Sequence record: SRR9188676_3688
Length of the DNA: 50,460 nucleotides
Reading direction: 5' to 3' (one strand)
Shown in pieces: positions 15,848-43,696 of this stretch; the first letter of the stretch is position 1; every line of letters begins with the position of its first letter. The notes beneath the pieces are model-generated. The model did not search any database. It was not told where the DNA came from and saw only the letters and a list, made by a program, of their open reading frames with translations. A program made the translations under genes and the position numbers.

Positions 15848-17134
<1,287 letters not shown>

Positions 17135-17680: not shown

Positions 17681-17720
17681 AAAAAGGGGCGGCCCCGATA
17701 GACGGAGCCGCCCCTTTTTT
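17681..17720. terminator. Bidirectional intrinsic terminator
   Basis: aaaaaggggcggc...gccgcccctttttt between convergent genes. Confidence 0.85.
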
Positions 17721-17737
17721 CACGCGCCGTTCCGCTG

Positions 17738-19921: not shown

Positions 19922-19986
19922 CGGTTTTTCCATCAACCCATGGTTATAATGGCGCTATTACTGCTTTCTTGACCATGGGTTGCTGC

Positions 19987-20355
19987 ATGAACGACGAACG
20001 GGATATTTCGGGCCGGGGGCCGGCGCGCGCTGCGCCGCGTGATAGCCTGTTCCTGCTCACCACCCTCAGCACGCCGGATGGCGTTCAACTGGGCAAGGCG
20101 CGCGTTCGTAATCTGTCCTCCACCGGCCTGATGGCCGACTGCGAACGGGCCGTGCCCGCCAGCATCCAGATCATCTGCGAATTGCGGGGTGTCGGTCAGG
20201 TTACCGGTACGGTCGCCTGGTCACGCGAAGAAAAGATCGGTATCGCTTTTGACGAGCCGATCGACCCGCAACTGGCGCGCAAACCTGTTGGCACCGGCGC
20301 GCAGAAGATGCCCGATTATTTGCGTGTCCCTCAGCACGGTGCACCCCGCCGCTAA
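19987..20355 (+). CDS. PilZ-domain protein
   Basis: RxxxR (RAAPR) and NxSxxG (NLSSTG) c-di-GMP motifs; G.VAW....IGIAF. Confidence 0.88.
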   Translation: MNDERDISGRGPARAAPRDSLFLLTTLSTPDGVQLGKARVRNLSSTGLMADCERAVPASIQIICELRGVGQVTGTVAWSREEKIGIAFDEPIDPQLARKPVGTGAQKMPDYLRVPQHGAPRR

Positions 20356-20521
20356 CCGCGCGGTTAATCCATCCATGTAATGCGGTCCAGGCTTTGCAGC
20401 GTGTGCTTTGCGGCGGCGGAGTCTTTATCGACCTGCGGCCGCCTCACCCCATCAGTTTGAAGGGAGGGCCGACGATCTGCATCGCCCAGCCCTTACCTCC
20501 TTTATCGACTGTCGCTGCTTC

Positions 20522-20680
20522 TCAATGCTGCGCCGCCAACTCTTCCTTCAACCGCAATTTCTGCTTCTTGAGCGAGGCCACGAGGATGGCGTCGGGCATG
20601 GGCCGACTCGACTCCGCCTTGATTCGTGCTTCAAGGCCGGCATGCTTGGCTGAAAGGGCTGAGATGTGGCTATTTTCCAT
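20522..20680 (-). CDS. DUF465/YdcH family protein (52 aa, absent from the ORF track)
   Basis: Translated by hand: MENSHISALSAKHAGLEARIKAESSRPMPDAILVASLKKQKLRLKEELAAQH; RBS aaggag. Confidence 0.85.
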   Translation of the reverse strand: MENSHISALSAKHAGLEARIKAESSRPMPDAILVASLKKQKLRLKEELAAQH

Positions 20681-20855
20681 GACATTCTCCTTACGGGTGG
20701 CGATGGATGATCAAATAAATCATGATTCGCCCCGCTTGTCTCGCGGTGTTTCGTCCTTTGCGACGGGCCGCCCAAAAATTTGCGATGGCCCGCGCCGCCC
20801 GCTCGCGTTATCAGGCCTTGTTCGAGCCAAGTAAGAGAAGGGGCAGCAAGGCGTC

Positions 20856-26800: not shown

Positions 26801-28037
26801 CTGGCGCCTGACCGGGGTGGAGATCGTCGATATTGCCGGCATGGTCGGCGTGTCTGCGGATATGCGCGGCACGCTGGGCGCGCCGGTCATCACCGGTAAT
26901 TTCACGACCGACAATGCCGCCATCAACAGCCCCGTCACGGGCATGCGGCTGAAGGGCGTCAAGGCGCGGGGCCGCTTCTCCGGTGCGCAACTGGTCATTT
27001 CCAGCTTCGCCGCGACCGCGCAAAATGGCGGCACCGTCAACGGCACCGGCCGCTTCACCTTCAACGGTATTGCCGGGGTCGGCATGGACCTCAGCCTGCA
27101 AGCCGACAATGCCGCACTATTGGAGCGGGACGATATCGCCGCAACCGTTACCGGCCCCATCACCCTCAAATCCGACGGTGTGGGCGGCACGATCGGCGGT
27201 GACCTGGTCCTCAACAAGAGCCGCTTCACCATGGGCCGCGCCGCCGCCGTGGCGCAGATCCCCGAACTCAAGGTGGTCGAGGTCAACCGGCGCGGCGACG
27301 AGATCGAACGTCCTCGCACCAACGTCCCCTGGGCGCTGGCGATCAAGGCGCGGGCGCGCAACCGTCTGACCGTCACCGGCCTCGGCCTTGACAGCGAATG
27401 GCGCGCGGACCTGGATATCGGCGGTACCGTCACCAACCCCGCCATTGCGGGCCGGGCGCAACTGGTGCGCGGCGGCTATGAATTTGCCGGCCGTCGCTTC
27501 GAGCTGCGCGAAGGCAATATCCAGTTCGACGGCAAGGTACCGGTCAACCCGACGCTGGACATCAGCGCCGAAGCCGATGTGAGTGACCTGAGCGCCACCA
27601 TCCATGTCGGCGGCACGGGCCTGAAACCCGACATCACCTTCACCAGCGTCCCCGCGCTGCCGCAGGACGAACTGCTTTCGCGCATCCTGTTCGGCACCTC
27701 CATCACCAACCTGTCCGCGCCCGAAGCGCTGCAACTCGCCTCTGCCGTCGGATCGTTGCAGGGCAATGGCGGCCTTGATCCGATCAACGCGGTGCGCAAG
27801 GCAGCGGGCCTCGACCGGCTGCGCATCATCGCCGCCGACCCGACGCAGGGGCAGGGTACGTCGATCGCGGCTGGCAAATATCTTACCCGCAAAACCTATG
27901 TCGAACTGATCACCGACGGTCAGGGCTACAGCGCCACCCGCATGGAATATCAGGTCACGCGCTGGCTATCCCTGCTGGCGGCCATCTCCACCCTCGGGCG
28001 CGAAAGCGCCAACGTACGTATTTCCAAGGATTATTGA
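23841..28037 (+). CDS. tamB: TamB (DUF490)
   Basis: N-terminal TM anchor, long beta-rich body, [14 protein letters not shown] and GKYLT. Confidence 0.92.
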
Positions 28038-28038
28038 T

Positions 28039-29433
28039 GTGACGAAGAGCGCGATCGACGCGGCCACCGCGATCAGCGTGATGGACCTGTTCACCATCGG
28101 CATCGGCCCGTCCAGTTCGCATACGGTGGGGCCGATGCGCGCCGCGCTGATGTTCATGGACACGCTGCCGCAGACGCCGGTTCGGGTGCAGTGCGAATTG
28201 TTCGGATCGCTGGCGCTGACCGGACGGGGCCATGCGACGGATAGCGCCATCCTGCTCGGCCTGTCGGGCTATCGTCCCGAAAGCGTCGATCCCGATGCGA
28301 TCGGGTCCATCCTGGCGGCGATCCGCACCGATGGCCGCATTCGGGCGGGCAGCGCCGTGGATCACTGGCTGCCGTTCGAGGAAGCGCGTGATCTCCTCTT
28401 CCACATGGGTGATTTTCTGGAAGCGCACAGCAACGGCATGCGCTTCACCGCCTGGCTGGACGGGCGTGACGATCCGATCGTACGCGACTATTATTCCATC
28501 GGCGGCGGCGCGGTGCTGCCGGGTGTAGTGCCGGTCAGCGATGACGCGCCGCTCGGCCATAATGTCGTCCAGCCCTGGCCCTTCTCCTCCGGCGCGGAAA
28601 TGCTGGCGCAGGGCGACGTCAGCGGCCTGTCGATCGCGACGCTGGTGCTGCGCAACGAAGGCGCCTGGCGGGTGCAGGCGGAAACCGAAGCCTTCCTGGA
28701 CAATGTCATCGACGCCATGAGCGCGTCGATCGACCGGGGCCTGATGCAGGAGGGGCTGCTGCCCGGCGGCCTCAAGGTCCGCCGTCGCGCTCGCGCCATT
28801 CATCAGCGGCTGCGCTTGCAGCAGGACGCGCTCGGTCCCGCCCAGATTTTCGAATGGGTCAGCCTGTTCGCGCTCGCCGTGAATGAGGAGAATGCGGCCG
28901 GCGGTCGCGTCGTCACCGCCCCCACCAACGGCGCGGCGGGCGTCATCCCGGCGGTGCTGCATTATTATCGCCGCTTCGTGCCCGGCGCCGACCGGGACGG
29001 AGAGCGTCGCTTCCTGCTGACTGCCGCTGCGATCGGCTTCCTCTACAAGAAGCGCGCTTCCATCTCCGCTGCCGAAATGGGCTGTCAGGGCGAAGTCGGC
29101 GTGGCCTGCTCCATGGCCGCTGCCGGTCTTGCCGCCGTCCTGGGGGGCACCAACACGCAAGTCGAAAATGCCGCGGAAATCGGCATGGAACATAATCTCG
29201 GCCTCACCTGCGACCCGATCGGCGGCCTCGTGCAGATCCCCTGTATCGAGCGCAACACGATGGGCGCGGTAAAAGCGATCAACGCCGCCTATCTCGCGCT
29301 CCAGGGTGACGGGCGCCACATCGTCAGCCTGGACGCGGTGATCGAAACCATGCGCCAGACAGGTGAAGACATGGCCAGCCGCTACAAGGAGACATCGCTG
29401 GGCGGATTGGCCGTCAATGTCGTGGAATGTTGA
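28039..29433 (+). CDS. sdaA: L-serine ammonia-lyase (Fe-S dependent)
   Basis: [34 protein letters not shown] and [20 protein letters not shown]. Confidence 0.96.
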
Positions 29434-29494
29434 AAATCGTTCCGTCGCTTCATCGTCCGTTCGGCACGGTCGCACGGCGAATGGAGCCAATTTC

Positions 29495-29510
29495 GTGACA
29501 TTAATGGCAC
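29495..29510. promoter_or_regulatory. Near-perfect palindrome upstream of the porin gene
   Basis: GTGACATT-AATGGCAC (1 mismatch). Confidence 0.4.
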
Positions 29511-29616
29511 AGAAGCAAGCGTTTATCTGAGGTTCATGAAACAAAGGCGGCCGCTCCCGGCTTGAGCGTCTCACCCCCTGAGAGAGGGGAGAGAATGTTT
29601 GAACGGAGTATCTGTT

Positions 29617-30270
29617 ATGCGTAAGTTGATGGTCGCAACCCTCTTGGCCGGCGCCACCGTGGCCACTCCCGCTTTGGCGCAGGATGTCGGCCCGACCTTC
29701 ACCGGCCCGCGTGTCGAAGCCATCCTTGGCTATGACCGCACGGGTGCTGGCAGCGACGTGGACAATGATAATGGCAATGACGATCAGAAGATCGACGGCC
29801 TGCTCTACGGCGTCGGCGCCGGCTATGACGTCAATCTCGGCAGCGCGGTCGTCGGCGTTGAAGGCGAATGGACTAACTCGACCTCCAAGAGCAGCCGCCG
29901 CGACTATACCGACCAATTCGGCTTCGGCCGCGTAAAGCAGGGTCGCGACCTCTATGTCGGTGCGCGTGCCGGTATCCTGGCCGATCCCGCCACGCTCGTC
30001 TATGTGAAGGGCGGCTATACCAACACGAAGCTGAACGTGTTGGCCGGCAACACCAATGAAAGCACCGACGAGGCCTTCAAGCTGAACGGCTGGCGGATCG
30101 GCGCGGGCGTGGAGCGCGCGATCAACGCCAACACCTTCGCCAAGGTCGAATATCGCTATTCCAAATATGAAGATGCCAAGCTGCGCTTCGCAGACGGGGC
30201 GACGACCAGCGAATTCGGCATCGACACCGACCGTCATCAGGTGGTCGGCAGCGTCGGCTGGCGCTTCTAA
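29617..30270 (+). CDS. Outer-membrane 8-stranded beta-barrel (Omp25/RopB-like)
   Basis: Signal peptide ending PALA; FTGPR..A..G, LVYVKGGY, KVEYRYS; C-terminal GWRF. Confidence 0.9.
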   Translation: MRKLMVATLLAGATVATPALAQDVGPTFTGPRVEAILGYDRTGAGSDVDNDNGNDDQKIDGLLYGVGAGYDVNLGSAVVGVEGEWTNSTSKSSRRDYTDQFGFGRVKQGRDLYVGARAGILADPATLVYVKGGYTNTKLNVLAGNTNESTDEAFKLNGWRIGAGVERAINANTFAKVEYRYSKYEDAKLRFADGATTSEFGIDTDRHQVVGSVGWRF

Positions 30271-30281
30271 ACCGCCAAGAT

Positions 30282-30354
30282 CCGTTCGTTTCGAGCGCAG
30301 TCGAGAAACGGGAAGCGCTGTTTTGGCCGCTTCTTGACAGGCTCGCAACGAACG
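30282..30354. repeat. Intergenic palindromic repeat doublet (degenerate right arm)
   Basis: ccgttcgtttcgagcgcagtcgagaaac ... ttcttgacaggctcgcaacgaacg; the spacer begins ggaagcgc, as in the 15692 copy. Confidence 0.75.
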
Positions 30355-30905: not shown

Positions 30906-31817
30906 CTAGAGGATCGACGGTGGTGAAAGCGCGCTGACAAGTGCGTCGACCGTCGCACGTACGCGCGGTGTCATGTCTCTCGTTTCCAGCCATATGACAT
31001 GGATCGGCAATCTGGGCTGTTGCAAATGGGGGAAGATCGAGATGAGCTCTCCGGAGCGCAGCTGATCTGCAACCAGCCAGGCGGGCAGTTGGGCAATCCC
31101 CATTCCGGCAACCGTTGCAGAGGCGATGGCGTCGAAACTCGCAAATCGATGCGATCCTCTCACCACGGTCCGTTTGACCGCTCCGTCCCCATCCAGGAAT
31201 AGCCAGGGATCTTCACGCCCCTCACGCAGATGCGTGATCGCGCGATGATTGCCAAGTTCGTCGGCCTCGGTCGGAATATCCCGGGCCGCACAATAAGATG
31301 CCGCAGCGCAGATAAGCAGGTCCTGCTCGCCCAATTTCCTGGCGATCAACCCGCTGCTGTCTGGCAAGTGGCCGATACGAACGGAGAGATCATATCCTTC
31401 TTCCGCCAGATCGACGATCCGATTGTCGAAACTGACGTCCAGGTTGAGCAACGGATATCGGTTCGCCAAATCCAGGAGGGCAGGTATCACCCTTTTGCGA
31501 CCGAACAATTCGGGCAAGTTGATGCGCAGCGTGCCTGACGGCGATGCTTTTCGATCCGCAAGCGCGGCCTCGGCACTGGCCAGTTCGGCCAACGCGCGCA
31601 GGCAGCTTTGATAATAAGCACGGCCTTCATCCGTCAGGCTGAGATGCCGGGTGGTCCGGAAGAAAAGTTTTACGCCCAGCCTATATTCCAGCCGCGCGAT
31701 CGCCTTGCTGACAGCCGATTGGGACAGTCCCAGCCGCTCGGACGCCTTGGCGAAACTGCCGGACTGTTCCGCCTGCACGAAGGCCCGAATACCATTTAGC
31801 CGTTCGCTGGAGATCAT
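30906..31817 (-). CDS. LysR-family regulator (CrgA-like)
   Basis: GSFAKASERLGLSQSAVSKAIARLE.RLGVKLF.RTTR.LSLTDEG. Confidence 0.95.
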   Translation of the reverse strand: MISSERLNGIRAFVQAEQSGSFAKASERLGLSQSAVSKAIARLEYRLGVKLFFRTTRHLSLTDEGRAYYQSCLRALAELASAEAALADRKASPSGTLRINLPELFGRKRVIPALLDLANRYPLLNLDVSFDNRIVDLAEEGYDLSVRIGHLPDSSGLIARKLGEQDLLICAAASYCAARDIPTEADELGNHRAITHLREGREDPWLFLDGDGAVKRTVVRGSHRFASFDAIASATVAGMGIAQLPAWLVADQLRSGELISIFPHLQQPRLPIHVIWLETRDMTPRVRATVDALVSALSPPSIL

Positions 31818-31935: not shown

Positions 31936-32652
31936 ATGCCACTTGCAAACAAACGCGCGATCATTATCGGTGGTGGCAGCGGCATCGGCCTGGAGGTAGC
32001 GCGCCAGGCGATTGCTCAGGACGCCCATGTGGTGATCGGTGGCCGCAACGAGGCGCGCCTCGCTACAGCGCTCTCCGAACTGGGAAGCTGCGCTAGTGCG
32101 CACCCCGTCGATACGTCGGACAAGCCGTCCATCCGCGCCTTTTTCGATCGGGTGGGTGCGTTCGATCACCTCTTCATATCCGCAGCCAGCTACACGCTCG
32201 GGCCGATCGACCAGATCAGCGATGAAGACGCCGAAAGCCCGTTTCGCTCGAAATTCTGGGGCCAATATTGGACCGTGCGCGATGCGCTCCCCTATCTCGC
32301 GCCTGACGGGTCGATCACGTTGATGGCAGGTGCGGCAGGCGCGCGGCCGATCAAGGGCATTCCAGCCTATGTCGCCTGCAACAGCGCGATCGAGGGGCTG
32401 GCGCGCGCATTGGCGGTCGACCTGTCGCCCATCCGCGTGAACTGCATATCGCCAGGCACCATCGACGGCCATTTATGGAGGCAGCGCCCTGCCGAAATCC
32501 GTGAAGCAGCCTTTGACAGCTACCGGGACATGTCCGTTGTAGGACGCCCCGGAACCGAAAAGGAAGTGGCTTCAACCGTTCTATTTTTGATGCAGAACGG
32601 CTTCGTCACGGGCTCGACCCTGTATCCCGACGGTGGCTTCGTGTTGCGATGA
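31936..32652 (+). CDS. Short-chain dehydrogenase/reductase
   Basis: IGGGSGIG, IRVNCISPG and FVTGS.LY.DGG; the YxxxK motif appears as YVACN. Confidence 0.92.
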   Translation: MPLANKRAIIIGGGSGIGLEVARQAIAQDAHVVIGGRNEARLATALSELGSCASAHPVDTSDKPSIRAFFDRVGAFDHLFISAASYTLGPIDQISDEDAESPFRSKFWGQYWTVRDALPYLAPDGSITLMAGAAGARPIKGIPAYVACNSAIEGLARALAVDLSPIRVNCISPGTIDGHLWRQRPAEIREAAFDSYRDMSVVGRPGTEKEVASTVLFLMQNGFVTGSTLYPDGGFVLR

Positions 32653-32802: not shown

Positions 32803-34173
32803 TTAGCGCCTGATGGCGGGGCTATGGTCGATCCGCGCAGCGGAAAAGCGATTGCGCGGTCGCGCAAGGCCCAGATTGTCCCGCAATGTCGGCCCCTCAT
32901 AATCGGTGCGAAACAGCCCGCGCCGCTGCAATTCGGGTATGACTTGCTCGACGAACCGGTCCACTGATCCGTGCAGGTCCGGGAACATGATATTGAACCC
33001 ATCGGCCGCCCCGGCACGGAACCAATGTTCGAAATCGTCCGCAATATCCTGCGCGCTGCCAAAGAGGATACGATGGCCTCCTGCCACCATCTTGCGCAGC
33101 AATTGACGAACCGTCGGCTGCTCGCGTCGGATCAGATCTATTACTAATTGCTGTCGGCTTTTATGCGTGTTCGTCACCGGGATGACGGAGGGCAGGACGA
33201 TCGGTTCGTCCAGATCCAGCGTCCACAGGTCGATGCCGATATTGACGAAATGCGAAATTCCCTTGAGCGTCGATATCGGGTCGAGTAAATCCTGTAATGC
33301 CTCATAACGGGCACGGGCGTCCGGCGCGCTGTCGCCGACATAGACGGATACGCCCGGCAATATTCGCACATCCGCGCGTTTGCGCCCATATCTGGCCAGC
33401 CGCGCGGTGACGTCTGCGTCGAAAGCCTCCGCCTCTTCGATCGTCTGCGCGGCGGTAAAGATCAGTTCCGCTGTACGCGCGGCCAGTTCGCGGCCGTCGT
33501 TGGAGGAGCCGGCTTGGGCGATTACCGGATAGCCTTGCACCGGCCGTGCGGAATTGAGTGGTCCCTGGACCGAAAAATGGGCGCCCTTGTGGTTCAGCAA
33601 GTGCATCTTGTCCGGGTTGGACCAGATGCCGTTCGCCTTGTCCTGAACGAACGCATCGTCTTCCCAACTATCCCACAGGCCGGTGATGACGTCGAAAAAT
33701 TCCTCCGCTCGTTCATAGCGTTTGGCATGAAGCAAATGATCGTCCCGGTTGAAATTTTCGCCGCCGCCCAGCGACGTGACGAGGTTCCAACCGGCACGCC
33801 CTTCGCTGAGATGATCGAGCGAGGCGAGCCGCCGGGCGAGCGTATAGGGTTCGTTATAGGTGGTATTGGCGGTGCTGATGAGGCCGATCCGGCGCGTCAC
33901 CACCGCCAAGGCGGGAAGAAGGGTCAACGGATCCCAGCGCATTCCCTGCGCGCTTCGTGCCAGCGATTTCGGGTCCAGTTCGGGCACGGCAACGCTGTCG
34001 TTGAGGAAAATCGCATCGAACAATCCTTCCTCCAATTTCTGCGCTACCCGCGCGTAAGGAGCAAAACTGCGGGATGCGTCTTCGTCCACCTCCGGCAGGC
34101 GCCAACTGGCATTGTGCGAGCCATGGCCCGACAGGAAAGCGCCGAGTTTGAGCGTGCCGGAGTGGTGGGCCAT
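32803..34173 (-). CDS. LLM-class FMNH2-dependent monooxygenase, NtaA/SnaA/DszA family
   Basis: FDAIFLND, DPLTLL.AL, NEPY.LARRLASLDHLS.GRAGWNLVTS, WDSWEDDA, QAGSS..G and DGFNI. Confidence 0.93.
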   Translation of the reverse strand: MAHHSGTLKLGAFLSGHGSHNASWRLPEVDEDASRSFAPYARVAQKLEEGLFDAIFLNDSVAVPELDPKSLARSAQGMRWDPLTLLPALAVVTRRIGLISTANTTYNEPYTLARRLASLDHLSEGRAGWNLVTSLGGGENFNRDDHLLHAKRYERAEEFFDVITGLWDSWEDDAFVQDKANGIWSNPDKMHLLNHKGAHFSVQGPLNSARPVQGYPVIAQAGSSNDGRELAARTAELIFTAAQTIEEAEAFDADVTARLARYGRKRADVRILPGVSVYVGDSAPDARARYEALQDLLDPISTLKGISHFVNIGIDLWTLDLDEPIVLPSVIPVTNTHKSRQQLVIDLIRREQPTVRQLLRKMVAGGHRILFGSAQDIADDFEHWFRAGAADGFNIMFPDLHGSVDRFVEQVIPELQRRGLFRTDYEGPTLRDNLGLARPRNRFSAARIDHSPAIRR

Positions 34174-34187
34174 GCCTGTTTCTCCTT

Positions 34188-36662
34188 TTAAAAGCTGAAC
34201 GACAGGCGGCCATAATAATAGCCGCCGTAAAAGCCGAAGGGGGACTGCGCCGGATAAGGCGGGAAGCCATTTGTATCGGGCAACGTATTTTTGTCCGGAT
34301 AGGTGTCGAAGAAATTGTTCGCGCCGATTGCGACGTTCACATTCTTCGTCGCCTGGAAGGACAGGTCGATGTCCGCGATCCACTTGGCGCCGTAAAACTG
34401 GTCGCTCGCCGCCGCCGTGCCCAGGAAAGCGACCTTGCCATAGCGTGTCTCTCGCAGGTTCAGCTTCAGATTGCCAAGCGCCAGATCCTGCCCAAGGATC
34501 AGCTTGGTGCGCGGCAGGTTGCGGTCGATATAGCCCTGCGCTTGCCGATCGAAGAGAGTCAGATTGAGCGCGGCCAGTTCCGCGGGATTGGCGGCAACAC
34601 TTGTGATCTTGGTCTTGTTGTAATTATAGCCTGCGGTCAGGCGCAACGACTTGTCCACGCCCAATGGCTGGAGATAGTTCAGCACGGCCTCCACGCCGCG
34701 CGTGCGGGTGTCGATCGCGTTTGCGAAATAGCGGACCGAATAGTTGGGATCGAACCCGTTGGCGACCAGGATCGCGCTGACCCCCGCACCGGTCAAATAG
34801 CCGGTCTGGGCGATGCGATCGTCCAGCTTGATCTGATAAGCATCGACCGACAAGTTGAGGCGCGATCCCAGCTTGTAGGTGAAGCCAGCCGACAGGTTGA
34901 AGGATTTCTCCGGCGTCAGTGCCTTTGCGCTCAGCGCGTCGCCGATCGGCGTGCCGGGCCGTACCGATTTGGCGGTGATGAAGGTCTGTACGCCGTTCAC
35001 CGTGGTATATTGGTTGGATGTCTGCGCGAAGGCCGACTGTGCCAGCGCGGGCGCATGGAAGCCGTTGCTCACAGTGCCTCGGATCGCGAAATTATCGGTA
35101 AAGTCGAAACGGGTCGTGAATTTGCCGTTCAGCGTGTCACCCGCGCTGTCGTCATAATGTTCGGCCCGCCCTGCCACCGCGACGAACCATTGGGGGATCG
35201 GGTTGAAGCCGATGTCGACATAGGCGGCATAGCTGTTGCGGCTCAGTTTGGCGGCATCCTCGGGCGTCAGTACGATCGCACCCTGCGCGCCGATCGTGGC
35301 GTAGCGCCCCGCAAGCGGCGTCCCGGCGGGATAGCGATAGAGGCCATTGGCATAGGAGGCCGGATCCCCTGCAATAGTCTGGAACTGCTCATAGCGATGT
35401 TCCGCGCCGAAAGAGATTTTCAGTGGCTCGGCAAGACCGATGTCGACCCCCTTTGAGACATCCACATTGTTCGTCCACTGTTTGAATTTTGCGGTAAAGG
35501 TCCAGAACTTGGTGGGGCTTGCGCTGCCCAGCGAGGCGTTCAAACTGTTGGTCGAACCGTTTTTCGACCGGTTTTCGCCATAGGTGCTGGAAATGTCCCA
35601 GTTCCAGCCGCCACTTTCCCCTTTGACGCCGCCCAGTGCCTGAAAGTCGCGCTCATCTAGCGTGTAATTGGGCGCATAGCCGTCCGGGAAAATGGACAGC
35701 ACGGCATTGGTCGAATTGGGCCGGCGGAAATTCTGGCCGATGACGGCCTCTCGGGTGGACCAGGTCGACGAAGAATAGACTGTAGCGCCGGGCGATAAGG
35801 GCAACTCGGCATTATACAGGATGGTCAGCGCGCGCAGATCGGGCAGGCCGCCGGTGAAGGCGGTCTTGTCGCGATTTTCGCGCGGGTCCGGTTGGCCGTT
35901 GGCGGGATAATAGAAGGCGCCGGTCGCCGGGATAGCGCGTCGGGCATGATTATTGTCCCTGGCATTGGCAGCGATGTTCAGGAAGCCGCCTTCGCCCAGC
36001 CTGAAGCCGATATTGCCGCCGGCCTCGATATTGCGACCGTCGCTATTGCCCAGATAGCTGTAGCGCTTGCCCGCGTTCAGGCTGAGCGTCCCGCCCTGCG
36101 CATCGTCTTTCAGCACGATGTTGATCACGCCGGCGATCGCGTCCGATCCATATTGCGCGGCCGCGCCGTCGCGCAGCACTTCGATTCGCTTGATCGCGGC
36201 GGCGGGGATCAGGTCGATATCGACCGAATTGGCGCCCTGATCGACGCTGCCGGTCGACAGGTTGAGCAATGAACTATTGTGTCGCCGCTTGCCATTCACC
36301 AGCACCAGTACATGCGATCCGCCAAGGCCGCGCAGACCCGCAGGTCGCGCCACGCTGTTCCAGGACGATGAACTGACCGTCAGCGAATTGAAGCTGGGCA
36401 ACAACACGCCCAACGCATCGCGCAGCGAACTATTGGCGCCCAGCGTGGCCAACTGGCTCTCGTCGATCACGTCGATCGGCGCGGGGCTGTCGATAACAGT
36501 GGTGGCGCGGCTGCGATTGCCGATGACGACGATGGTTGAATCCGTCTCCGCTTCGGTTGCGGCCGGTGCCCCTTGAGCAATGGCCTGCGATGCTGTCCCC
36601 ACACCGGCGCTCAGAGCCGACGAGAGCAAAGCGACGCGTAGCATTGTCTTGGTATCGAACAT
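34188..36662 (-). CDS. TonB-dependent receptor (mature chain free of Cys and Met)
   Basis: Signal peptide, LVLVNGKRRH, RDGAAAQYGSDAIAGVINI, GANNFFD.YP and C-terminal SF; alternative start at 36677. Confidence 0.95.
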   Translation of the reverse strand: MFDTKTMLRVALLSSALSAGVGTASQAIAQGAPAATEAETDSTIVVIGNRSRATTVIDSPAPIDVIDESQLATLGANSSLRDALGVLLPSFNSLTVSSSSWNSVARPAGLRGLGGSHVLVLVNGKRRHNSSLLNLSTGSVDQGANSVDIDLIPAAAIKRIEVLRDGAAAQYGSDAIAGVINIVLKDDAQGGTLSLNAGKRYSYLGNSDGRNIEAGGNIGFRLGEGGFLNIAANARDNNHARRAIPATGAFYYPANGQPDPRENRDKTAFTGGLPDLRALTILYNAELPLSPGATVYSSSTWSTREAVIGQNFRRPNSTNAVLSIFPDGYAPNYTLDERDFQALGGVKGESGGWNWDISSTYGENRSKNGSTNSLNASLGSASPTKFWTFTAKFKQWTNNVDVSKGVDIGLAEPLKISFGAEHRYEQFQTIAGDPASYANGLYRYPAGTPLAGRYATIGAQGAIVLTPEDAAKLSRNSYAAYVDIGFNPIPQWFVAVAGRAEHYDDSAGDTLNGKFTTRFDFTDNFAIRGTVSNGFHAPALAQSAFAQTSNQYTTVNGVQTFITAKSVRPGTPIGDALSAKALTPEKSFNLSAGFTYKLGSRLNLSVDAYQIKLDDRIAQTGYLTGAGVSAILVANGFDPNYSVRYFANAIDTRTRGVEAVLNYLQPLGVDKSLRLTAGYNYNKTKITSVAANPAELAALNLTLFDRQAQGYIDRNLPRTKLILGQDLALGNLKLNLRETRYGKVAFLGTAAASDQFYGAKWIADIDLSFQATKNVNVAIGANNFFDTYPDKNTLPDTNGFPPYPAQSPFGFYGGYYYGRLSFSF

Positions 36663-36713
36663 TGAAATTTCCCCCATTTTAACGTTATTCCGTCTTGAAT
36701 GCCTGACCCGGAA

Positions 36714-37682
36714 TCAGATCAGCCCGGCTTCCCACAATCCCGACATGTCGTATTCGCCGCGCACCAACCCGAATGCGAAAAGGTCGCTGGTCACTTGTTG
36801 AAGGCTGGCGATGGCATCGGCCGCCGGCGGCACGATCAGCGCGGGCCGGCTGGCTTCGCGCGCCAGCCGCTCGAACAGGGCCGGCGATTGATCACTCAAC
36901 TGACCCGACAGCGCGGCCCAGCGCGCGGGGTTATGGCCGATCCATTGCCATGTGGTCTGTTCACGGCGCAGATAATCCCGGATCGCGGCGCGTTTGAGCG
37001 GATCGCCCAGCGCGTCGGGATGCGCGGAGATGCAGAAATTGCCCGAATATATGCCTTTGACGTTGGATATGATCCACCGCCCGCCCAGCAGCTTTTCCGT
37101 CAGCAGCGCCGATATGCCGCTCGCTACGGTCGCCTCCACATGGCCACGGGTAAAGGCGGCGTTGGCGTCGCTTACCGGCAGGCCCACTGCCTTGACGTCC
37201 TTCAACGTCATGCCGTGCGCTTCCAGCAATTTCAGCAGATAATAATAATTGTTGGTGTTGGGCGTGTAGGCGATGGTCCGCCCGCGTAAATCCTCGAACC
37301 GGCGCGCGGGTGAGGACTTGCCCACCAACACGCCACTATTGTTCACATCGCCCTGGTGCGTCGCGATCAATTTTATCGGCGTGCCTGACTGGATGGCGAA
37401 AGCCGGCGGAATTTCGCTCATATAACTATAATCGAGTTCGCCGGCCGCATAGGCATTGAGCACCAGCGACCCACCCGGCAGATCGACATAGCGAACCTTG
37501 TACGGCATGTCCGCCAGGCCTGCGGCGGCCATGAAATTGCCCGCAGTATTCTTGTATCGCCACACGCGCAGGGTAACGTCCGAAAGCCTCTGCGCCTTGG
37601 CGGATGGCCTGCACCCGGCAAGCGCCAAGGCACCGGCGCTGGACAGCAGACCGCGCCGCGAAAAGGATGAAGGAGCGGGCAT
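36714..37682 (-). CDS. SsuA/TauA-like substrate-binding lipoprotein (Tat)
   Basis: SRRGLL Tat motif, LAGC lipobox, SEIPP, SP...EDLRGR.IAY. Confidence 0.85.
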   Translation of the reverse strand: MPAPSSFSRRGLLSSAGALALAGCRPSAKAQRLSDVTLRVWRYKNTAGNFMAAAGLADMPYKVRYVDLPGGSLVLNAYAAGELDYSYMSEIPPAFAIQSGTPIKLIATHQGDVNNSGVLVGKSSPARRFEDLRGRTIAYTPNTNNYYYLLKLLEAHGMTLKDVKAVGLPVSDANAAFTRGHVEATVASGISALLTEKLLGGRWIISNVKGIYSGNFCISAHPDALGDPLKRAAIRDYLRREQTTWQWIGHNPARWAALSGQLSDQSPALFERLAREASRPALIVPPAADAIASLQQVTSDLFAFGLVRGEYDMSGLWEAGLI

Positions 37683-38527
37683 CAATCGAGCAGATCTGGC
37701 TCGGCGCGGACGATCTCATCCCAATAGGGCAGGAAGCTGAGCCAGGCCCATGCTTCGCGCTGTTCGTGCGAAGGTGCGCGCTTCGGCGGATCGGTTAATG
37801 GTGTCCCCGCTGCGAGGGCAGCCAATTGGACTCGCGCGGCGCTTTCATAGGCGATGAAGCGCCAGGCAGCGGCTTCGACGCTGTCACCGACGGTCCAATG
37901 ACCATGGTTGCGCCACAGCAGGATGTTGCGATCGCTCAGTTCGCGGGCAAACTGCCCCGCTATCTGTGCCCATGTCTCCGCCTGGCTTTTTCCCTCCGGG
38001 CGATCGGGTAAGAAAACGACCTGATCGTCATGGAAAATGGCAACGTCGGCTATGATCGGTTCGATCGGCTGGCCAAAGGCGGACCATGTCTTGGCGTGGA
38101 AACTATGCGCATGCACGATTCCCACGACACCGGGCCGCGCGCGCTGGACGGCATGATGATAGGGAATGCCGGACAGGTTTACGGGGCCATCGCCCTCCAC
38201 CACGCGGCCGTCGCTGTCGATGCGCAGCAGGTCGGATACCCGGATGTGGGAAAAGGGCACACCCACCGGATTGACCCAGAAATGATCCGTATGTTCCGGG
38301 TCGCGGGCGCTCAAATGCCCTGCCAGTCCCGGCTCCACGCCATGATGGGCGAGCAGGCGCAGCGATGCGGCGAGTTGCTGCTGGCGATGCAGCCTTTCCT
38401 CGCTAAAGGATGCGCGGTTGGTAGGTGCCGCAACGCGCGGCCCATCTCCATCGCGCGCCACGCCATAGATGCGCGGCGCCAGCCTCGACGGCGCGGCACG
38501 GCGGATAGCAGGAGATAGATTCGTCAT
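37682..38527 (-). CDS. Class II aldolase/adducin family protein
   Basis: GHLSARDPE..DHFWVNP, HAHS and NHG metal ligands. Confidence 0.92.
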   Translation of the reverse strand: MTNLSPAIRRAAPSRLAPRIYGVARDGDGPRVAAPTNRASFSEERLHRQQQLAASLRLLAHHGVEPGLAGHLSARDPEHTDHFWVNPVGVPFSHIRVSDLLRIDSDGRVVEGDGPVNLSGIPYHHAVQRARPGVVGIVHAHSFHAKTWSAFGQPIEPIIADVAIFHDDQVVFLPDRPEGKSQAETWAQIAGQFARELSDRNILLWRNHGHWTVGDSVEAAAWRFIAYESAARVQLAALAAGTPLTDPPKRAPSHEQREAWAWLSFLPYWDEIVRAEPDLLD

Positions 38528-39018
38528 TTACGCCATCAATCCTCAAAACTTGTCGATGGCGATGCATAGGAAGCGGAAGGTGGCGCTGGGAAATGAGAAG
38601 CGCAGTTCCCAGCTTTGGAATTTCACATATTATTTGCATCGCTTCAGGATGCGAAAGATCCAATATTCGCTATAATGGCGTGTTTCCTTTTCGTTCAATC
38701 ACATAGGTCGTCGCCATGATTGATGTTCGACTTCGGTTTCCTCATGTCATTGTCCAGCGTCTCTAAAATCCCGCTTCGGTGCGGGCAGCGGTGCTTGATC
38801 GACCAATCCGCTCCATCCCGTTCTTCCTACGAAGAAATGCCGAATATCAGAAGCGTTATAAGTTCTGCTAAATAATCTGGTCACGAACTCATTTGTTGGT
38901 GCAAGCGTTGGAGCATAGCGTTCCAATGATCAATCTGCGGCTCCGACGGATCGACAATCATCATGTCGTCACGACGGATATTCAGTGCTGCACCGGTCAT
39001 TGGAATGGATGAATTTTT

Positions 39019-40359
39019 ATGACAGCCAGTCGACAACTTCACCTCGGCGCTATCTTGAGCGGCGTCGGCACCACGCAAAATGGCTGGCTGCATCCGGATC
39101 TGCCTGGCGATGCCAGCGTCAACATTGACTGGTATATCGACAACGCCCGCAAGGCGGAGGCGGCCAAGTTCGACCTCGTCTTCATCGTCGATTCTCCTTA
39201 CATCACGCCAGATACGGCGCCGCATTTCCTCAACCGCCTGGAACCGCTGACGCTGCTCTCAGCCGTCGCGACCGCAACCAGCAGGATCGGCCTCGCCGGC
39301 ACCTTGACCACCTCCTATTGGGAACCCTTCAATGTCGCGCGCCAGTTCGCCTCGCTCGACCTGATCAGCCGGGGGCGCGCCGCCTGGAATGTCGTGACTA
39401 CGGGCCTGGAAGGAGCCGCGCGCAACTATGGCCGTGAGGAGCATTTCGATCACAAGCTACGCTATGCCCGCGCCCGCGAATTTGTCGACGTCGTGCAAGG
39501 CTTGTGGGACAGTTATGAGGACGACGCTTTTCCGCGCGACAAGGCCAATGCGGTCTTTCTGGACAAGGGCAAGCAGCATCCGCTCAACCATCAGGGCGCC
39601 TTTTTTTCCGTGGCCGGTCCGCTCAACATCCAGCGTTCGCCGCAGGGGCAGCCGGTCATCTTCCAGGCTGGCGAATCCGAACAGGGCAGGGCGCTGGGCG
39701 CCGCGATCGCCGAAGGCATCTATGCCAATGCCGAAAGCTTCGATCAGGCGCAGGAATATTATGCGGATGTGAAGCGCCGTGCGACGGCGCTCGGCCGCAA
39801 CCCCGATCATATTCTGATCCTGCCCGGGCTGATCCCGATCATCGCTGACACAGATGAGGAAGCGCGCGCGATCGAGGAGGAGCAGAATGGCAAGCTGGAC
39901 CTGAACAAGGCGCTGGTGCAGCTGGGCCGGCCGTTCAACTATCATGATTTTACGCAATATGATCTGGACGCCCCCTTCCCGGACGTCAGCCATCTGTCGC
40001 TCAACAGCTATAAGGGCCGGGCCGAACGCATCATTCGCACGGCGCAGCGGGACAATCTGACGCTGCGCGAAACCGCCTGGCGTTTTGCCGCGCGCGCCAA
40101 CCCCTTCGTGGGTTCGCCCAAAACCGTGGCGGACGAAATCGAGCGCTGGTTTCTGGATGGCGCATCGGACGGGTTCAACCTGCGCGTCACCAATCCGGCG
40201 GACTTCGCGATCTTCGTCGACCGCGTGGTGCCGTTGTTGCAGGCACGGGGGCTGTTCCGGACCGAATATGCGCATGACACGCTGCGTGGCCATCTTGGCC
40301 TGCCGTTCGTCCAAAACCGCCACGCCCGTGCCGCACCGGCCGCGATCGCAGCCGAATGA
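39019..40359 (+). CDS. LLM-class FMNH2-dependent monooxygenase, NtaA/DszA family (reminiscent of the YtnJ/CmoJ type)
   Basis: FDLVFIVDS, HFLNRLEPLTLLSA, ARQFASLDLISRGRAAWNVVT, PVIFQAG and HDFTQYDLDAPFPD. Confidence 0.93.
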   Translation: MTASRQLHLGAILSGVGTTQNGWLHPDLPGDASVNIDWYIDNARKAEAAKFDLVFIVDSPYITPDTAPHFLNRLEPLTLLSAVATATSRIGLAGTLTTSYWEPFNVARQFASLDLISRGRAAWNVVTTGLEGAARNYGREEHFDHKLRYARAREFVDVVQGLWDSYEDDAFPRDKANAVFLDKGKQHPLNHQGAFFSVAGPLNIQRSPQGQPVIFQAGESEQGRALGAAIAEGIYANAESFDQAQEYYADVKRRATALGRNPDHILILPGLIPIIADTDEEARAIEEEQNGKLDLNKALVQLGRPFNYHDFTQYDLDAPFPDVSHLSLNSYKGRAERIIRTAQRDNLTLRETAWRFAARANPFVGSPKTVADEIERWFLDGASDGFNLRVTNPADFAIFVDRVVPLLQARGLFRTEYAHDTLRGHLGLPFVQNRHARAAPAAIAAE

Positions 40360-40424: not shown

Positions 40425-41404
40425 GTGACCGATAGACGGCATGACCGCCGAACCTTGCTTGGTGCCGTGGGTGCCGGTCTGGCCTTCACCATGTTGGGTG
40501 GCTGCGGTGCTTCGCCCGGTGCTGGCGGGGGGAAGCTGCGTTCGTCGTACAGCAAGGGCGGTTATGAACTCATCCTGCGCACGGCCGGGCTGAAACCAAA
40601 AGACTTCGGCGTCGACTACAGCCTCTTCCAGTCTGGGCATCTCGTGATCGAAGCGCTGAACGGCGGTTCGCTGGATTTCGGCACGATGAGCGAAATTCCG
40701 CCTGTCTTTGCCGCCGCTTCGTCGATTCAGAGCTTTCGGCAGGTCGCAACCATCGTTGGCGACGTCAATAATCAGGTGATTTTGGTCCCTCGCCATTCGC
40801 CCATCCGCGATTTGGCCGATCTTAAAGGGCGCCGCATCGCCTATGTCCGTGCGACGACGTCGCAATATTTCCTCATTCGCATGCTGCAGTCGGTGGGGCT
40901 TGGCTGGCAGGATATCCATCCCGTCGCCATGTCGCCTACGGACGGGATGGCCGCCTTTTCCAACGGCGCCATCGACGCCTGGGCCATTTACGGTTTCCAG
41001 ATCCAGCGGGCGGTCGCAACCCAGGGCGCGCATGTTCTCAAAACCGCGCTGGGCTTCCTGTCGGGCAACTATACGCTTCGGCCCATGTCGATGCGTTGGC
41101 CGATCCGGTCAAGGCGGCGCAGGTCGGCGCCTATTTGCAATTGCTCAAACAGGGCTTTGCCTGGAAGGCGAAGAATGAAGAGCGTTTCGCCCAAGCACTG
41201 GCGAAAGAAATAGAAGTGCCGCTGTCCTATGTGCTGGACCAGTTACGCAGCGCCAGCCAGCCGACGGACCTGTTGCCGGTGACCAAAGAGGCGGTCGCGT
41301 CGCAACAGGCCGTGGCCGACACATTCCATGACGCGGGCTTCCTGCCGCAGAAAATCAAGGTCGGTTCGCTTTGGGACGACCGTTACAACGCGCTTCTAGG
41401 GTGA
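40425..41404 (+). pseudogene. SsuA-like Tat lipoprotein split by a 1-nt frameshift near 41077
   Basis: ORFs 40425-41213 and 41096-41404 join into SGNYTLSAHVDALADPVK if one T is restored, matching paralog SGNFCISAHPDALGDPLK. Confidence 0.85.
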
Positions 41405-41612
41405 AAGCGTCGCATCGTTGGCGGCCATTCGTCATCCGATCATGATGTTGGCACAGACCATCATCACCGCGAACCGAAGCGTGCGCAGAGGATAAAATGG
41501 CGATTCCGACGAATTCGCGCTCGATCAGATCGGGCGCATCCGTAAAATGAACGCATCCTGTGCAAGGGCGATCGGGCGCGACAAGCGCACGAATGGCAGA
41601 GATGAAGCTCAT
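41355..41612 (-). CDS. Small Cys-rich protein (85 aa; C-x2-C-x33-C-x12-C)
   Basis: The ATG overlaps the upstream stop (ATGA at 41609-41612); MSFISAIRALVAPDRPCTGCVHF...GLCQHH...RCDAF. Confidence 0.7.
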   Translation of the reverse strand: MSFISAIRALVAPDRPCTGCVHFTDAPDLIEREFVGIAILSSAHASVRGDDGLCQHHDRMTNGRQRCDAFTLEARCNGRPKANRP

Positions 41613-43000
41613 TGGCCCAATCGTGCCCAATAATCGCCGAATATATGGACCGACAGGATGAAGCCAAGGATCAGGTTGACGGCGACGCCGATCGCAAAGG
41701 CGCCAAATGGCTTTCGGCCGCCGGCTGACAGAGTCGAAAATCGGGTCGTCAGGCCGATACTGAGAAAGCAGAAGATAAAGGCCCAACTGCGCAGATCCTT
41801 GATCGGCGCGATCAGGCCGGGCACGGCCACCTTGTTATAGTCTGTCAGGCTGTAGCTGGCGGTCAGGGCCGTGATGAGCGCTGACGCAAGAAAGAAGCCC
41901 AGGATGAACTTGGGAAAGCGGCGCCATATCTCTCGCACGTCAGGGTGCGATCCGCTTGTGCGCTCCTCCCACCGCGTCGTCGCGACGATGGCCAGCACCA
42001 CCGCCCAGATACCGATCCAGACGTCGCGGCCCACGACCTTCATCAGCGTGAAGGCTTGCAGCGCCTGATCGCTCGTGCCCTCTATGCCCGCGACCTTGCC
42101 TGCAAAGCCGCCATAGGCCTGCGCTGCCGCAATGCCGGCCGCATCGGCAAATTCCGATGTGCCTATCCACGCGCCTGCGATGCCCGTCGGCAACGACAAT
42201 GCGCGCGCCACGAAGGGCAGGGCAAAGATCATCACGATCGCCCAGACGATGACGATCGTGATCGTGACCGATGTGTCTTCCTTCTTCGCACCGACAGCGC
42301 CTGCGACCGCGATCGCCGCCGACACGCCGCATACGGCGCCGCCCACGCCCAAAGTCGCGGCGAACCGGCGGTCCAGACCGAATTTGACGGCTGCCAGAAA
42401 GATGACGCTGAAGGTGACGACGGATACGATCGACGCTTGCAGGATGGCTATCGGACCGGCCAGGGCGATCAGGGAGAAGGGCACGGTCGCGCCCAGCAGG
42501 ACGATCCCGGTCTTCACGTACAATTCCCCGCGCAAGGCCGATGTCAGCCATGCCGGCAGTCGCACACTATTGGCAATGACAAGGCCGGCAAACAACGCGA
42601 CCAGCGGCGGTTCCAGATTGTAACGCACCGCCCCTTCCCACTGGCCAAGGACGAATATGCCATAGGCGGCGAGGTAGAGCAGAGAGAAGGCCGGCACGAA
42701 GCGGCGCACCTGCTGCCCCAGCGCAACGAGAGTAAGGGAAAAGGCAGCAAGCCAGAACAGGAACTGGGCACCATAGCGCGGCCAGTTTTGCGCCAGATCG
42801 GCGATAACCTGCCAGATATCGGACCATTTGGGGGGCAGGACCGCCAGCCATCGCAAACTGCCACCGGCAGAAAAAAGCGCGGCGCTGGCCAGAACGATGG
42901 AAAGGCCGATCCAGATGGCCCAGCTATCCTCCTTCCCACCCAAGATGCGCAGGATCTTCGCTGCCCCGCGATCCTGTTCGCCTGTAACCGCCTCAGCCAT
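41609..43000 (-). CDS. YeiH-family (putative sulfate exporter, PSE) membrane protein, long type
   Basis: About 11-13 hydrophobic segments; E.YVKTGIVLLGA, GGAVCGVSAAIA, GAWIGTSE and FLSIGLTT. Confidence 0.88.
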   Translation of the reverse strand: MAEAVTGEQDRGAAKILRILGGKEDSWAIWIGLSIVLASAALFSAGGSLRWLAVLPPKWSDIWQVIADLAQNWPRYGAQFLFWLAAFSLTLVALGQQVRRFVPAFSLLYLAAYGIFVLGQWEGAVRYNLEPPLVALFAGLVIANSVRLPAWLTSALRGELYVKTGIVLLGATVPFSLIALAGPIAILQASIVSVVTFSVIFLAAVKFGLDRRFAATLGVGGAVCGVSAAIAVAGAVGAKKEDTSVTITIVIVWAIVMIFALPFVARALSLPTGIAGAWIGTSEFADAAGIAAAQAYGGFAGKVAGIEGTSDQALQAFTLMKVVGRDVWIGIWAVVLAIVATTRWEERTSGSHPDVREIWRRFPKFILGFFLASALITALTASYSLTDYNKVAVPGLIAPIKDLRSWAFIFCFLSIGLTTRFSTLSAGGRKPFGAFAIGVAVNLILGFILSVHIFGDYWARLGQ

Positions 43001-43048: not shown

Positions 43049-43696
43049 TCATGATGGATAGTGCAGCGATCCGTCGCCAATTCCCCGATCCGAAACATAT
43101 GCGTCCCCCTTGCCATGGCGGGCCGATGCCTGTCCCTTTGCAAGCCGCGTCAGAAGGAACCGCCCGAACGTCCAATCACCCAATCCGGATTGCGCATTGA
43201 TATGACCCGTTTCGCCCGCATCGGCAAACTGGCTTCCCCATGCCTGCGCCAATTCGCGCGATCGCTCGAACGGCATATAGGGGTCGTTATGGCTGGCGAC
43301 GAGGATGGAAGGAAAGGGCAACAGTCTTTGCGGCAGCGGTGCGAAGCCGTGCAAACGGCTGTCTGCTGCCCGCGCATCGACTTCGGGCGGAGCCACCAAC
43401 AAGGCTCCCTGTATCTTGTCGCTCCAGTTCGGGCAGGCCAGAGCGGCCCACCATGCGACGGCATGGCAGCCAAGACTATGTGCCGCGAGCAATATGGGGC
43501 CGTCCAATGCATTGATGGTCTGGTCGAGCCGGTTGACCCAACTGTTGCGATGGGGGCGGTCCCAACTGCCCAGGTCGACGCGATGACAGGCCGGGAACAG
43601 GGTTTCCCACTGACTTTGCCAATGGCCAGGGCCGCTGTTCATCAATCCGGGGACAGTCAGAATATGGGGTGTTTGGGCATTGCCTGGCCGGCCCAT
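43049..43696 (-). CDS. RBBP9/YdeN-family alpha/beta serine hydrolase
   Basis: VPGL.NSGP.HWQ, AHSLG nucleophile elbow, LLVAPP, S.NDPY and GHIN. Confidence 0.92.
   Translation of the reverse strand: MGRPGNAQTPHILTVPGLMNSGPGHWQSQWETLFPACHRVDLGSWDRPHRNSWVNRLDQTINALDGPILLAAHSLGCHAVAWWAALACPNWSDKIQGALLVAPPEVDARAADSRLHGFAPLPQRLLPFPSILVASHNDPYMPFERSRELAQAWGSQFADAGETGHINAQSGLGDWTFGRFLLTRLAKGQASARHGKGDAYVSDRGIGDGSLHYPS

Follow-up and report, generated by a model that had tools for sequence, protein, structure and literature searches.

Sulfur sparing, in which proteins are poor in cysteine (Cys) and methionine (Met), has its classic examples in cyanobacteria and yeast, and Scott et al. reportedly described, in 2007, sulfate-starvation-induced proteins of low sulfur content in Pseudomonas putida. 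In P. putida and in Rhodococcus IGTS8, the acquisition proteins induced by sulfate starvation are Cys- and Met-poor, and their composition serves as a marker of the regulon. Both sulfur sparing in sulfate-starvation enzymes and the approach of counting Cys and Met are treated in an excerpt of PMC8557817. Here we examine a 50-kb stretch of Sphingobium limneticum DNA (50,460 nucleotides, GC ~58–67%; hereafter the window), in which a cluster of genes encodes proteins that are likewise depleted, including a TonB-dependent receptor (TBDR), an aldolase-fold enzyme and two flavin-dependent monooxygenases (LLM1 and LLM2). From composition, protein families and conservation together, we consider it quite probable that this cluster is an organosulfur-scavenging system for times of sulfur limitation, from whose most abundantly produced proteins Cys and Met have been purged by selection for sulfur economy. 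Since the sulfur-sparing principle is established, the finding is not categorically new. Unlike the sulfate-starvation-induced proteins, the window cluster is known from sequence composition, and we infer its induction by sulfur limitation, its high expression, the order of its reactions, its substrate class and its inner-membrane step.

Several described systems share parts with this cluster. The ssuEADCB, msuEDC and sfnFG systems also pair a binding protein of the SsuA type with a luciferase-like monooxygenase that depends on reduced flavin mononucleotide (FMNH2) and frees sulfur from C-S compounds. The monooxygenases of the window are instead of the larger NtaA/DmoA type, the SsuBC permease/ATPase and the SsuE/MsuE reductase of ssu/msu have no counterpart in the Sphingobium locus, and the window cluster adds a TBDR and an aldolase-fold enzyme. 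In the S-alkylcysteine salvage of Bacillus subtilis, the relevant enzyme is YtnJ, which we take to be the CmoJ of the literature and which was the best or second-best structure match for both LLMs. The likeness of the LLMs to CmoJ, and to YxeK of S-(2-succino)cysteine breakdown, is at the family level only, and the CmoO, acetyltransferase and deacetylase partners of the B. subtilis pathways are not present at the window locus. CmoJ, YxeK and DszA are homologous flavoenzymes that cleave C-S bonds (PMC10863075, in excerpt). A precedent for a TBDR in an organosulfur cluster, likened here by description, is SftP of the P. putida S-313 ats-sft cluster, which takes part in sulfate-ester use (PMC7711191, in excerpt); that cluster encodes sulfatases and a dioxygenase for sulfate esters, whereas the window encodes NtaA-family monooxygenases and an aldolase-fold protein. 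The tonB2-exbB-exbD locus of P. aeruginosa is strongly up-regulated by sulfate starvation, according to a passage of PMC3377617 that cites Tralau 2007. No description of the operon, of the sulfur-poor TBDR family or of the aldolase-fold member was found in the literature searched, in which subscription journals were thinly covered, such that absence from print is not established.

Listing and translation of the open reading frames (ORFs) of the window again gave every coordinate and residue count in the original prediction, an earlier reading of the same DNA. Four minus-strand genes, assigned with Pfam and NCBIfam, form a tightly packed operon in the order aldolase, SBP1, TBDR and LLM1. The features of the locus are:

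37682–38527, minus strand: aldolase, a putative metalloprotein of the class II aldolase/adducin fold (PRK06208 subfamily) of 281 amino acids (aa), first gene of the operon (PF00596, NF004855)
36714–37685, minus strand: SBP1, an SsuA-like NMT1-family periplasmic binding protein of 323 aa (PF09084)
34188–36677 (or 36662), minus strand: TBDR, an outer-membrane receptor dependent on TonB, of the plug plus 22-strand barrel type (PF07715, PF00593)
32803–34173, minus strand: LLM1, an FMNH2-dependent monooxygenase of the NtaA/DmoA family, 456 aa, last gene of the operon (TIGR03860)
38528–39018: intergenic region separating the operon from the divergent LLM2, 491 bp, AT-richer (from reading the sequence)
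39019–40359, plus strand: LLM2, a second NtaA/DmoA-family monooxygenase, 446 aa, divergent from the operon (TIGR03860)
40425–41404, plus strand: SBP2, a second SsuA-like binding-protein gene, frameshifted near 41051–41072 (TIGR01728 on its 5′ part)
41609–43000, minus strand: a membrane protein of the YeiH/"putative sulfate exporter" family, 463 aa, converging on SBP2 (PF03601)
31936–32652: SDR gene flanking the operon, ordinary sulfur content
30906–31817: LysR regulator gene flanking the operon, ordinary sulfur content

The start of SBP1 overlaps the stop of the aldolase gene, 14 nt separate the TBDR stop from the LLM1 start, and the 491-bp divergent region presumably holds the promoter and regulatory sites.

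According to the original prediction, the mature TBDR, the aldolase and LLM2 contain neither Cys nor Met beyond the initiator, and our recount gave the same result. In the 829-aa form of the TBDR, the only Met are residues 1, 6 and 12, each of them in the putative signal peptide, leaving a mature protein of ~794 aa with no Met and, like the leader, no Cys; the aldolase and LLM2 have no Cys and no internal Met. The count of no Cys and four internal Met in LLM1 was likewise reproduced, and the YeiH-family protein was found to contain two Cys and two internal Met, which is low for a membrane protein. Cys and Met together thus make up 0–0.9% of these five proteins, compared with 2.26% (Cys 0.61%, Met 1.66%) in a background of 29 window genes lying outside 30.9–43.7 kb (11,038 aa). 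Both TBDRs cited earlier as internal controls do contain sulfur residues: that at 10523–13348 has 10 internal Met and 13 Cys, of which one lies in the signal peptide, and that at 45905/45944–48229 has no Cys and 6–7 internal Met. A 706-aa protein (21721–23841, plus strand; used as an outer-membrane control) and a 1,398-aa protein (23841–28037, plus strand) are free of Cys with a normal Met content (8 and 23, respectively), so a lack of Cys alone is unremarkable here.

Under a binomial model with the window background, the mature TBDR had a probability of 1.3e-8 of containing no sulfur residue, LLM2 one of 3.8e-5 and the aldolase one of 1.7e-3; a sulfur content as low as observed had P = 0.023 for LLM1 and P = 0.021 for the YeiH-family transporter. 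When compared with four other outer-membrane proteins of the window, the TBDR still gave 7.3e-6 on their Cys+Met background and 3.8e-4 on their Met-only background. Chance composition is excluded for the TBDR and LLM2. The binomial test that the original prediction had proposed for its three proteins therefore came out in favor of these two, while the aldolase taken alone fails correction for ~36 genes. Because the binomial model ignores over-dispersion, conserved depletion in orthologues is the stronger argument.

To this end, an aldolase-alignment scan of one genome per species yielded 75 loci, taken with flanks of up to 10 kb, among which the window's own region was recovered as L001 (S. 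limneticum DSM 25076, NZ_VYPZ01000001.1). Genes were called with a start-trimming codon log-odds caller and labeled by BLASTP to the window proteins; as the caller is imperfect (it skips 43049–43696 and, in the frameshifted SBP2, the 5′ half), Cys and Met of homologues were counted in the BLAST-aligned region only. The order aldolase-SBP1-TBDR-LLM1 was present in 39/75 loci, comprising the window genome, three other Sphingobium/Sphingomonas, two Nitrospirillum and 33 gammaproteobacteria (Pseudomonas, Stutzerimonas, Phytopseudomonas or related). Two further loci were operon-like, being truncated or without a called SBP1; 11 had LLM1 and aldolase without a TBDR, nine had aldolase-SBP1 and then other genes, two had aldolase-LLM, eight were otherwise arranged, and in four the aldolase itself was not called.

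The orthologue comparison suggested with the original prediction showed that depletion was retained in the operon-type loci. The aldolase was sulfur-free in 37/39, the TBDR was sulfur-free in 13/39 and had at most two sulfur residues per ~790 aligned in all 39, and LLM1 had a median of no Cys and two Met, with a maximum of four sulfur residues; the depletion is thereby conserved across three bacterial families. Columns that hold Met in undepleted sequences hold Leu or Val in the operon type. In LLM1, M396 is invariant in 40/40 operon-type sequences and nearly all other Met are lost, suggesting depletion down to a functional minimum, which is the pattern expected under selection against dispensable sulfur residues. 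In many Pseudomonas loci, the gene directly upstream of the aldolase encodes an LLM2 orthologue (62–72% identity, 0–2 sulfur residues).

The LLM1-aldolase pair also occurs behind an Opp/Dpp-type ATP-binding cassette (ABC) system, without a TBDR or SsuA-like gene, in the 11 Acetobacteraceae/Roseomonas loci (L006–L009, L011–L013, L015, L016, L018 and L073). There, Cys+Met is ordinary (1.5% in the aldolase, 2.0% in LLM1), which means that the pair exists outside the sulfur-sparing regime. In a quick maximum-likelihood tree, these undepleted aldolases clustered with the sulfur-free Sphingomonad and Nitrospirillum ones (SH-like approximate likelihood ratio test, SH-aLRT, 83), and the sulfur-free Pseudomonas clade stood separately; composition therefore tracks genomic context and not descent.

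A wider look at each family pointed in the same direction. Among the best 120 aldolase homologues, 17 were sulfur-free and the median was 3.5 sulfur residues, and all 14 of those at least 64% identical had no Met (three had one Cys). The best 120 TBDR homologues (49–100% identity; Sphingomonadaceae, Caulobacter/Phenylobacterium, Roseateles, Pseudomonas and Stenotrophomonas) had a median of two sulfur residues and a range of 0–16, with 26 being sulfur-free past the first 40 residues and 50 more having one or two; homologues only ~50% identical had 0–16 Met. For LLM2, the 137 full-length representatives among the best 150 at 50% clustering had a median of eight and a range of 0–25 sulfur residues, and 8/137 were sulfur-free. 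From these ranges, low sulfur content is not a structural property of the aldolase, TBDR or LLM2 families, and it appears instead to be a recurrent state of a subset within each.

We then compared the proteins with family models and solved structures. Both monooxygenases scored far above the TIGR03860 cutoff of 279.7 (LLM1 523.1 bits, LLM2 511.3 bits) over model positions 1–422, while SsuD and SfnG models gave just 50–90 bits, far under their cutoffs. The Protein Data Bank (PDB) matches of LLM1 were YtnJ (E = 1e-102), the FMN-dependent oxidoreductase 7e36, nitrilotriacetate (NTA) monooxygenase and DszA; those of LLM2 were the nitrilotriacetate monooxygenase 3sdo (E = 2e-140) and YtnJ (E = 2e-125), with DszA and DmoA also among the nearest solved structures of the LLMs.

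The aldolase matched PF00596 with 139 bits (cutoff 22.2; E = 2e-40) and NF004855 with 267.2 bits (cutoff 255), and fell far under the cutoffs of the FucA, AraD and MtnB equivalog models. An H-x-H...H pattern (H139, H141 and H208), whose residues may correspond to the Zn ligands of FucA, was invariant across 44 aldolase sequences. Its closest PDB entries were "Decarboxylase NovR" 9ryg (E = 2.4e-37), 4xxf and TqaM. NovR/CloR/TqaM-type enzymes carry out oxidative-decarboxylase chemistry. NovR and TqaM are thus the nearest solved structures, but the NovR/CloR/TqaM enzymes serve antibiotic or fungal natural-product biosynthesis, whereas the window aldolase sits in a putative sulfur-scavenging operon.

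Identical (100%) to an NCBI protein from S. limneticum, the TBDR has both a plug domain (PF07715, 70 bits; cutoff 23.9) and a barrel (PF00593, 97.5 bits; cutoff 27). By eye only, its leader reads MFDTKTMLRVALLSSALSAGVGTASQAIA, ending in SQAIA and followed by QG, with DSTIVVIGNR as a TonB-box-like segment before the plug. Solved structures (CirA, PfeA and BtuB) matched over the plug domain only, which is why the substrate cannot be read from homology.

SBP1 has a leader with an RR motif and a lipobox-like Cys. Its nearest PDB entry was E. coli SsuA 2x26 (E = 1.7e-17); given that its score against TIGR01728 SsuA_fam, 86.8 bits, is under the cutoff of 163.5, we term it SsuA-like and not a member of the SsuA family. 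The 5′ part of SBP2 scored 118.9 bits against the same model. The two reading frames of SBP2 align to residues 19–226 and 220–335 of an intact 337-aa homologue that is 77% identical (L004:5305–6318), indicating either a pseudogene or an assembly error. The YeiH-family protein scored 127 bits against PF03601 (cutoff 24.5) and 60.5 bits against TIGR00698, under the cutoff of 232.6; one Cys and one Met occur in its S. scionense orthologue (locus L002), and the protein probably belongs to the system. In the Pseudomonadaceae, the operon runs on into genes for an SBP_bac_5 protein (median three Cys and two Met per ~530 aa), a pair of permeases and a fused double ATPase of Dpp/Nik/Gsi type, and the binding protein of this ABC system matches the TIGR04028, nickel NikA and opine CntA models, all under cutoff.

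Neighboring genes in the related loci are sulfur genes, and several of their products are themselves poor in or free of sulfur. They encode TauD, SfnB-like proteins of the acyl-CoA-dehydrogenase fold, NlpA/NIL-type (MetNIQ-like) components of methionine transporters and 2-oxoglutarate (2OG) oxygenase, as well as rhodanese, proteins resembling cysteine dioxygenase and an AhpC/TSA peroxiredoxin with two Cys retained and no Met. With the LLM/aldolase/TBDR clusters excluded, 9/668 proteins of at least 250 aa in all related loci were sulfur-free, and the identified ones are sulfur-related proteins, binding proteins and two GroELs. Individual sulfur-free neighbors and the variant cluster described below are:

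L002:17832–18761, plus strand: CysE-like serine O-acetyltransferase, 309 aa, no Cys, no Met
L060:11865–13169, minus strand: pyridoxal phosphate (PLP) enzyme of Cys/Met metabolism, 434 aa, no Cys, no Met
L058:1024–2046, plus strand: SBP_bac_11 sulfate-binding-type protein, 340 aa, no Cys, no Met
L046:5127–6050, plus strand: SBP_bac_3 amino-acid-type binding protein, 307 aa, sulfur-free
L056, L057, L062, L063, L068 and L070, ~7,000–20,800 in each: variant Pseudomonas cluster

This variant cluster replaces part of the operon in ~7 Pseudomonas loci. It encodes an SfnB-like protein, a 2-hydroxyacid dehydrogenase, an aldolase, an M19 dipeptidase, an amine oxidase and RidA, together with two SsuA-like proteins, a paralogous TBDR (44–45% identical) and a WelO5/2OG-oxygenase-like protein; close by are FecR, a presumed extracytoplasmic function (ECF) sigma factor, a rhodanese of four domains and a gene resembling cysteine dioxygenase. 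Its gene content suggests an amino-acid- or dipeptide-like organosulfur substrate. The Dpp/Nik-type importer and the dipeptidase, amine oxidase and RidA neighbors likewise suggest that the compound would be derived from a peptide or an amino acid.

Taken together, these assignments can be arranged into a putative pathway, whose guiding idea would be that a cell short of sulfur cannot afford to spend it on the very machinery that acquires it. The TBDR would carry a scarce organosulfur compound over the outer membrane, and the SsuA-like lipoprotein would capture it in the periplasm. Import through the inner membrane could be achieved in Pseudomonadaceae by the NikA/Dpp/Gsi-type ABC system encoded directly downstream, and in Sphingobium by the YeiH-family protein or by genes elsewhere, both of which are candidates. 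In the further steps as we envisage them, LLM1 and LLM2 would use FMNH2 to cut C-S bonds in the manner of the related CmoJ, YxeK and DszA, the NovR/TqaM-like aldolase-fold metalloenzyme would process the carbon skeleton by decarboxylation or retro-aldol-type chemistry, and the freed sulfur would enter cysteine synthesis. It is possible that a housekeeping reductase encoded elsewhere acts as the flavin partner of the LLMs. The original prediction had proposed that the locus imports and cleaves an organosulfur compound, and had added that composition alone assigns this role. The first part is supported by the protein families, the conserved depletion and the sulfur-gene neighbors; the second was overstated, in that composition is not the sole pointer (family and neighborhood agree with it) and SBP1 is undepleted.

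A number of observations weigh against an organosulfur-scavenging system shaped by sulfur economy. SBP1, inside the operon, has two Cys and six Met in 323 aa (2.5%) and shows no depletion, its mean Cys+Met over the 39 operon-type loci is an ordinary 1.67%, and SBP2 is not depleted in sulfur either. The sulfur-sparing signature that the original prediction ascribed to the locus consequently holds for the TBDR, the aldolase and LLM2 and is not locus-wide, and a simple model in which the whole operon is spared would leave SBP1 unexplained. One Met of SBP1 is invariant in 40/40 sequences and several others are half-conserved; lower abundance or functional Met residues are possible reasons for its escape. 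Neither a flavin reductase nor an SsuBC-type permease/ATPase was found among the locus genes with Pfam and NCBIfam (the rest of the window genes being unsearched), and no encoded inner-membrane importer was recognized at the Sphingobium locus. The background composition comes from the 50-kb window and not from the whole proteome of the strain, and all related loci were found via the aldolase, giving a biased sample of TBDR contexts. The association between context and composition (operon-type, 39 sulfur-free and 2 not; other, 4 sulfur-free and 26 not) contains only three phylogenetically independent contrasts on supported branches and hence cannot reach significance. Regulatory signals were also sought. 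None of 41 regions upstream of the aldolase matched a degenerate -24/-12 sigma-54 pattern, so SfnR-type control is not indicated; Rfam gave no match at the gathering threshold in the whole window, and thus no S-adenosylmethionine (SAM) riboswitch. A sigma-70/terminator scan of 32.4–43.2 kb returned seven promoter-like sites versus 3.8 expected, none convincingly placed, and the upstream regions of six alphaproteobacterial loci were, by eye, AT-rich with no element common across genera.

We also considered whether the low sulfur content might have causes other than sulfur economy. It is very improbable that it reflects chance, base composition or a family trait, although barrels are poor in Cys, ATG and TGY codons are few at high GC, and a small protein may be free of sulfur by accident. 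TBDRs are generally without Cys (there is none in the TBDR at 45905 or in the 706-aa protein at 21721–23841); the aldolase value of 1.7e-3 is not significant after the ~36-gene correction; and nine of the 668 unrelated proteins are sulfur-free too. Set against this, window genes average 2.26% Cys+Met, the TBDR reaches 3.8e-4 even on the outer-membrane Met-only background, and the sulfur-poor genes are adjacent, with a depletion that is conserved in three families and absent from homologues in other contexts. Sulfur ranges within families of 0–16 (TBDR) and 0–25 (LLM) speak against a family trait. Avoidance of oxidation, for its part, would start from Cys and Met being the most oxidizable residues, from the peroxide that two-component flavin monooxygenases leak, and from the exposure of the outer membrane and periplasm to oxidants. 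This idea draws on the AhpC/TSA peroxiredoxin genes in several related loci and on the co-induction of antioxidant defenses with sulfur scavenging (PMC12581299, in excerpt), yet that peroxiredoxin has two Cys but no Met, as sulfur economy predicts, and the depletion reaches non-oxidative proteins (the TBDR, GroEL/GroES, the CysE-like protein, binding proteins and the PLP enzyme). Moreover, the Acetobacteraceae/Roseomonas pairs, which presumably carry out the same chemistry, have normal Cys and Met, and we judge oxidation avoidance to be quite unlikely.

Another explanation concerns the substrate, which might be a chelator, an opine, or an aminopolycarboxylate- or peptide-like compound that serves as a source of metal, carbon or nitrogen. 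Relatives of the LLMs such as NtaA and EmoA degrade NTA and ethylenediaminetetraacetate (EDTA), the best PDB match of LLM2 is named nitrilotriacetate monooxygenase (3sdo), and TBDRs classically import metal chelates; the NikA/CntA-like binding protein of Pseudomonas (with models under cutoff) and the M19 dipeptidase, amine oxidase and RidA of the variant loci would fit as well. Such a role would leave unexplained the conserved sulfur depletion, the SsuA-like protein, the YeiH-family protein and the recurring TauD, SfnB-like, CysE-like, MetNIQ-like and sulfate-binding-type neighbors, and a peptide- or amino-acid-like substrate fits a sulfur role too, for example in the form of S-conjugates or sulfonated amino acids. 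For these reasons, a non-sulfur role appears unlikely to us, and organosulfur scavenging under selection for sulfur economy is the reading that we retain.

If so, near-zero Cys+Met in long proteins would be a sequence-only predictor of a sulfur-limitation response, validated here on 39 genomes, and it gives a testable role to an anonymous TBDR family and an aldolase-fold enzyme that are kept from sphingomonads to many plant- and soil-associated Pseudomonas. The depleted and undepleted orthologues offer a clean natural experiment on elemental sparing. Organically bound sulfur is the main soil sulfur pool (PMC7711191, in excerpt), and presumably also that of fresh waters; since organic sulfur is the main pool, an unrecognized uptake route would matter for sulfur cycling in the rhizosphere and in fresh water. 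More tentatively, and with doubts that outweigh our confidence, we suggest that the operon defines a new and widespread TonB-dependent salvage pathway for an unidentified class of organosulfur compounds, that its NovR/TqaM-like and CmoJ-like enzymes take part in undescribed C-S chemistry, and that absence of Cys and Met delimits a "sulfur-starvation shadow proteome" that includes GroEL/GroES. Were this true, even core proteostasis machinery would exist in bacteria as a sulfur-free copy, kept for times of sulfur famine.

Both Nitrospirillum loci carry, directly upstream of the operon and in divergent orientation, a groES-groEL pair:

L005:7681–9306, minus strand: GroEL, 541 aa
L005:9327–9617, minus strand: GroES, 96 aa
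L010:7676–9301, minus strand: GroEL
L010:9329–9619, minus strand: GroES

Neither the Nitrospirillum GroES (96 aa) nor the GroEL (541 aa) contains any Cys or Met. No report of a sulfur-free GroEL was found in the literature searched. If sulfur limitation induces these proteins, sparing would reach beyond acquisition enzymes and into core housekeeping machinery. Sulfur content was sharply bimodal among the 120 nearest homologues of this GroEL, with 66 lacking Cys and internal Met, two having a single Cys and 52 having 13–24 sulfur residues; the sulfur-free ones belong to Nitrospirillum, Niveispirillum, Azospirillum (some plasmid-borne), Inquilinus and Zavarzinia.

Lastly, long spurious ORFs, either antisense or over-extended and typical for high-GC DNA, were seen in the window at 27955–30348 (minus strand), 32803–34383 (minus strand) and 33514–34191 (plus strand), and because of them simple gene calling by ORF length was misled. 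One of these spurious ORFs spans 797 aa opposite the serine dehydratase gene at 28039–29433.

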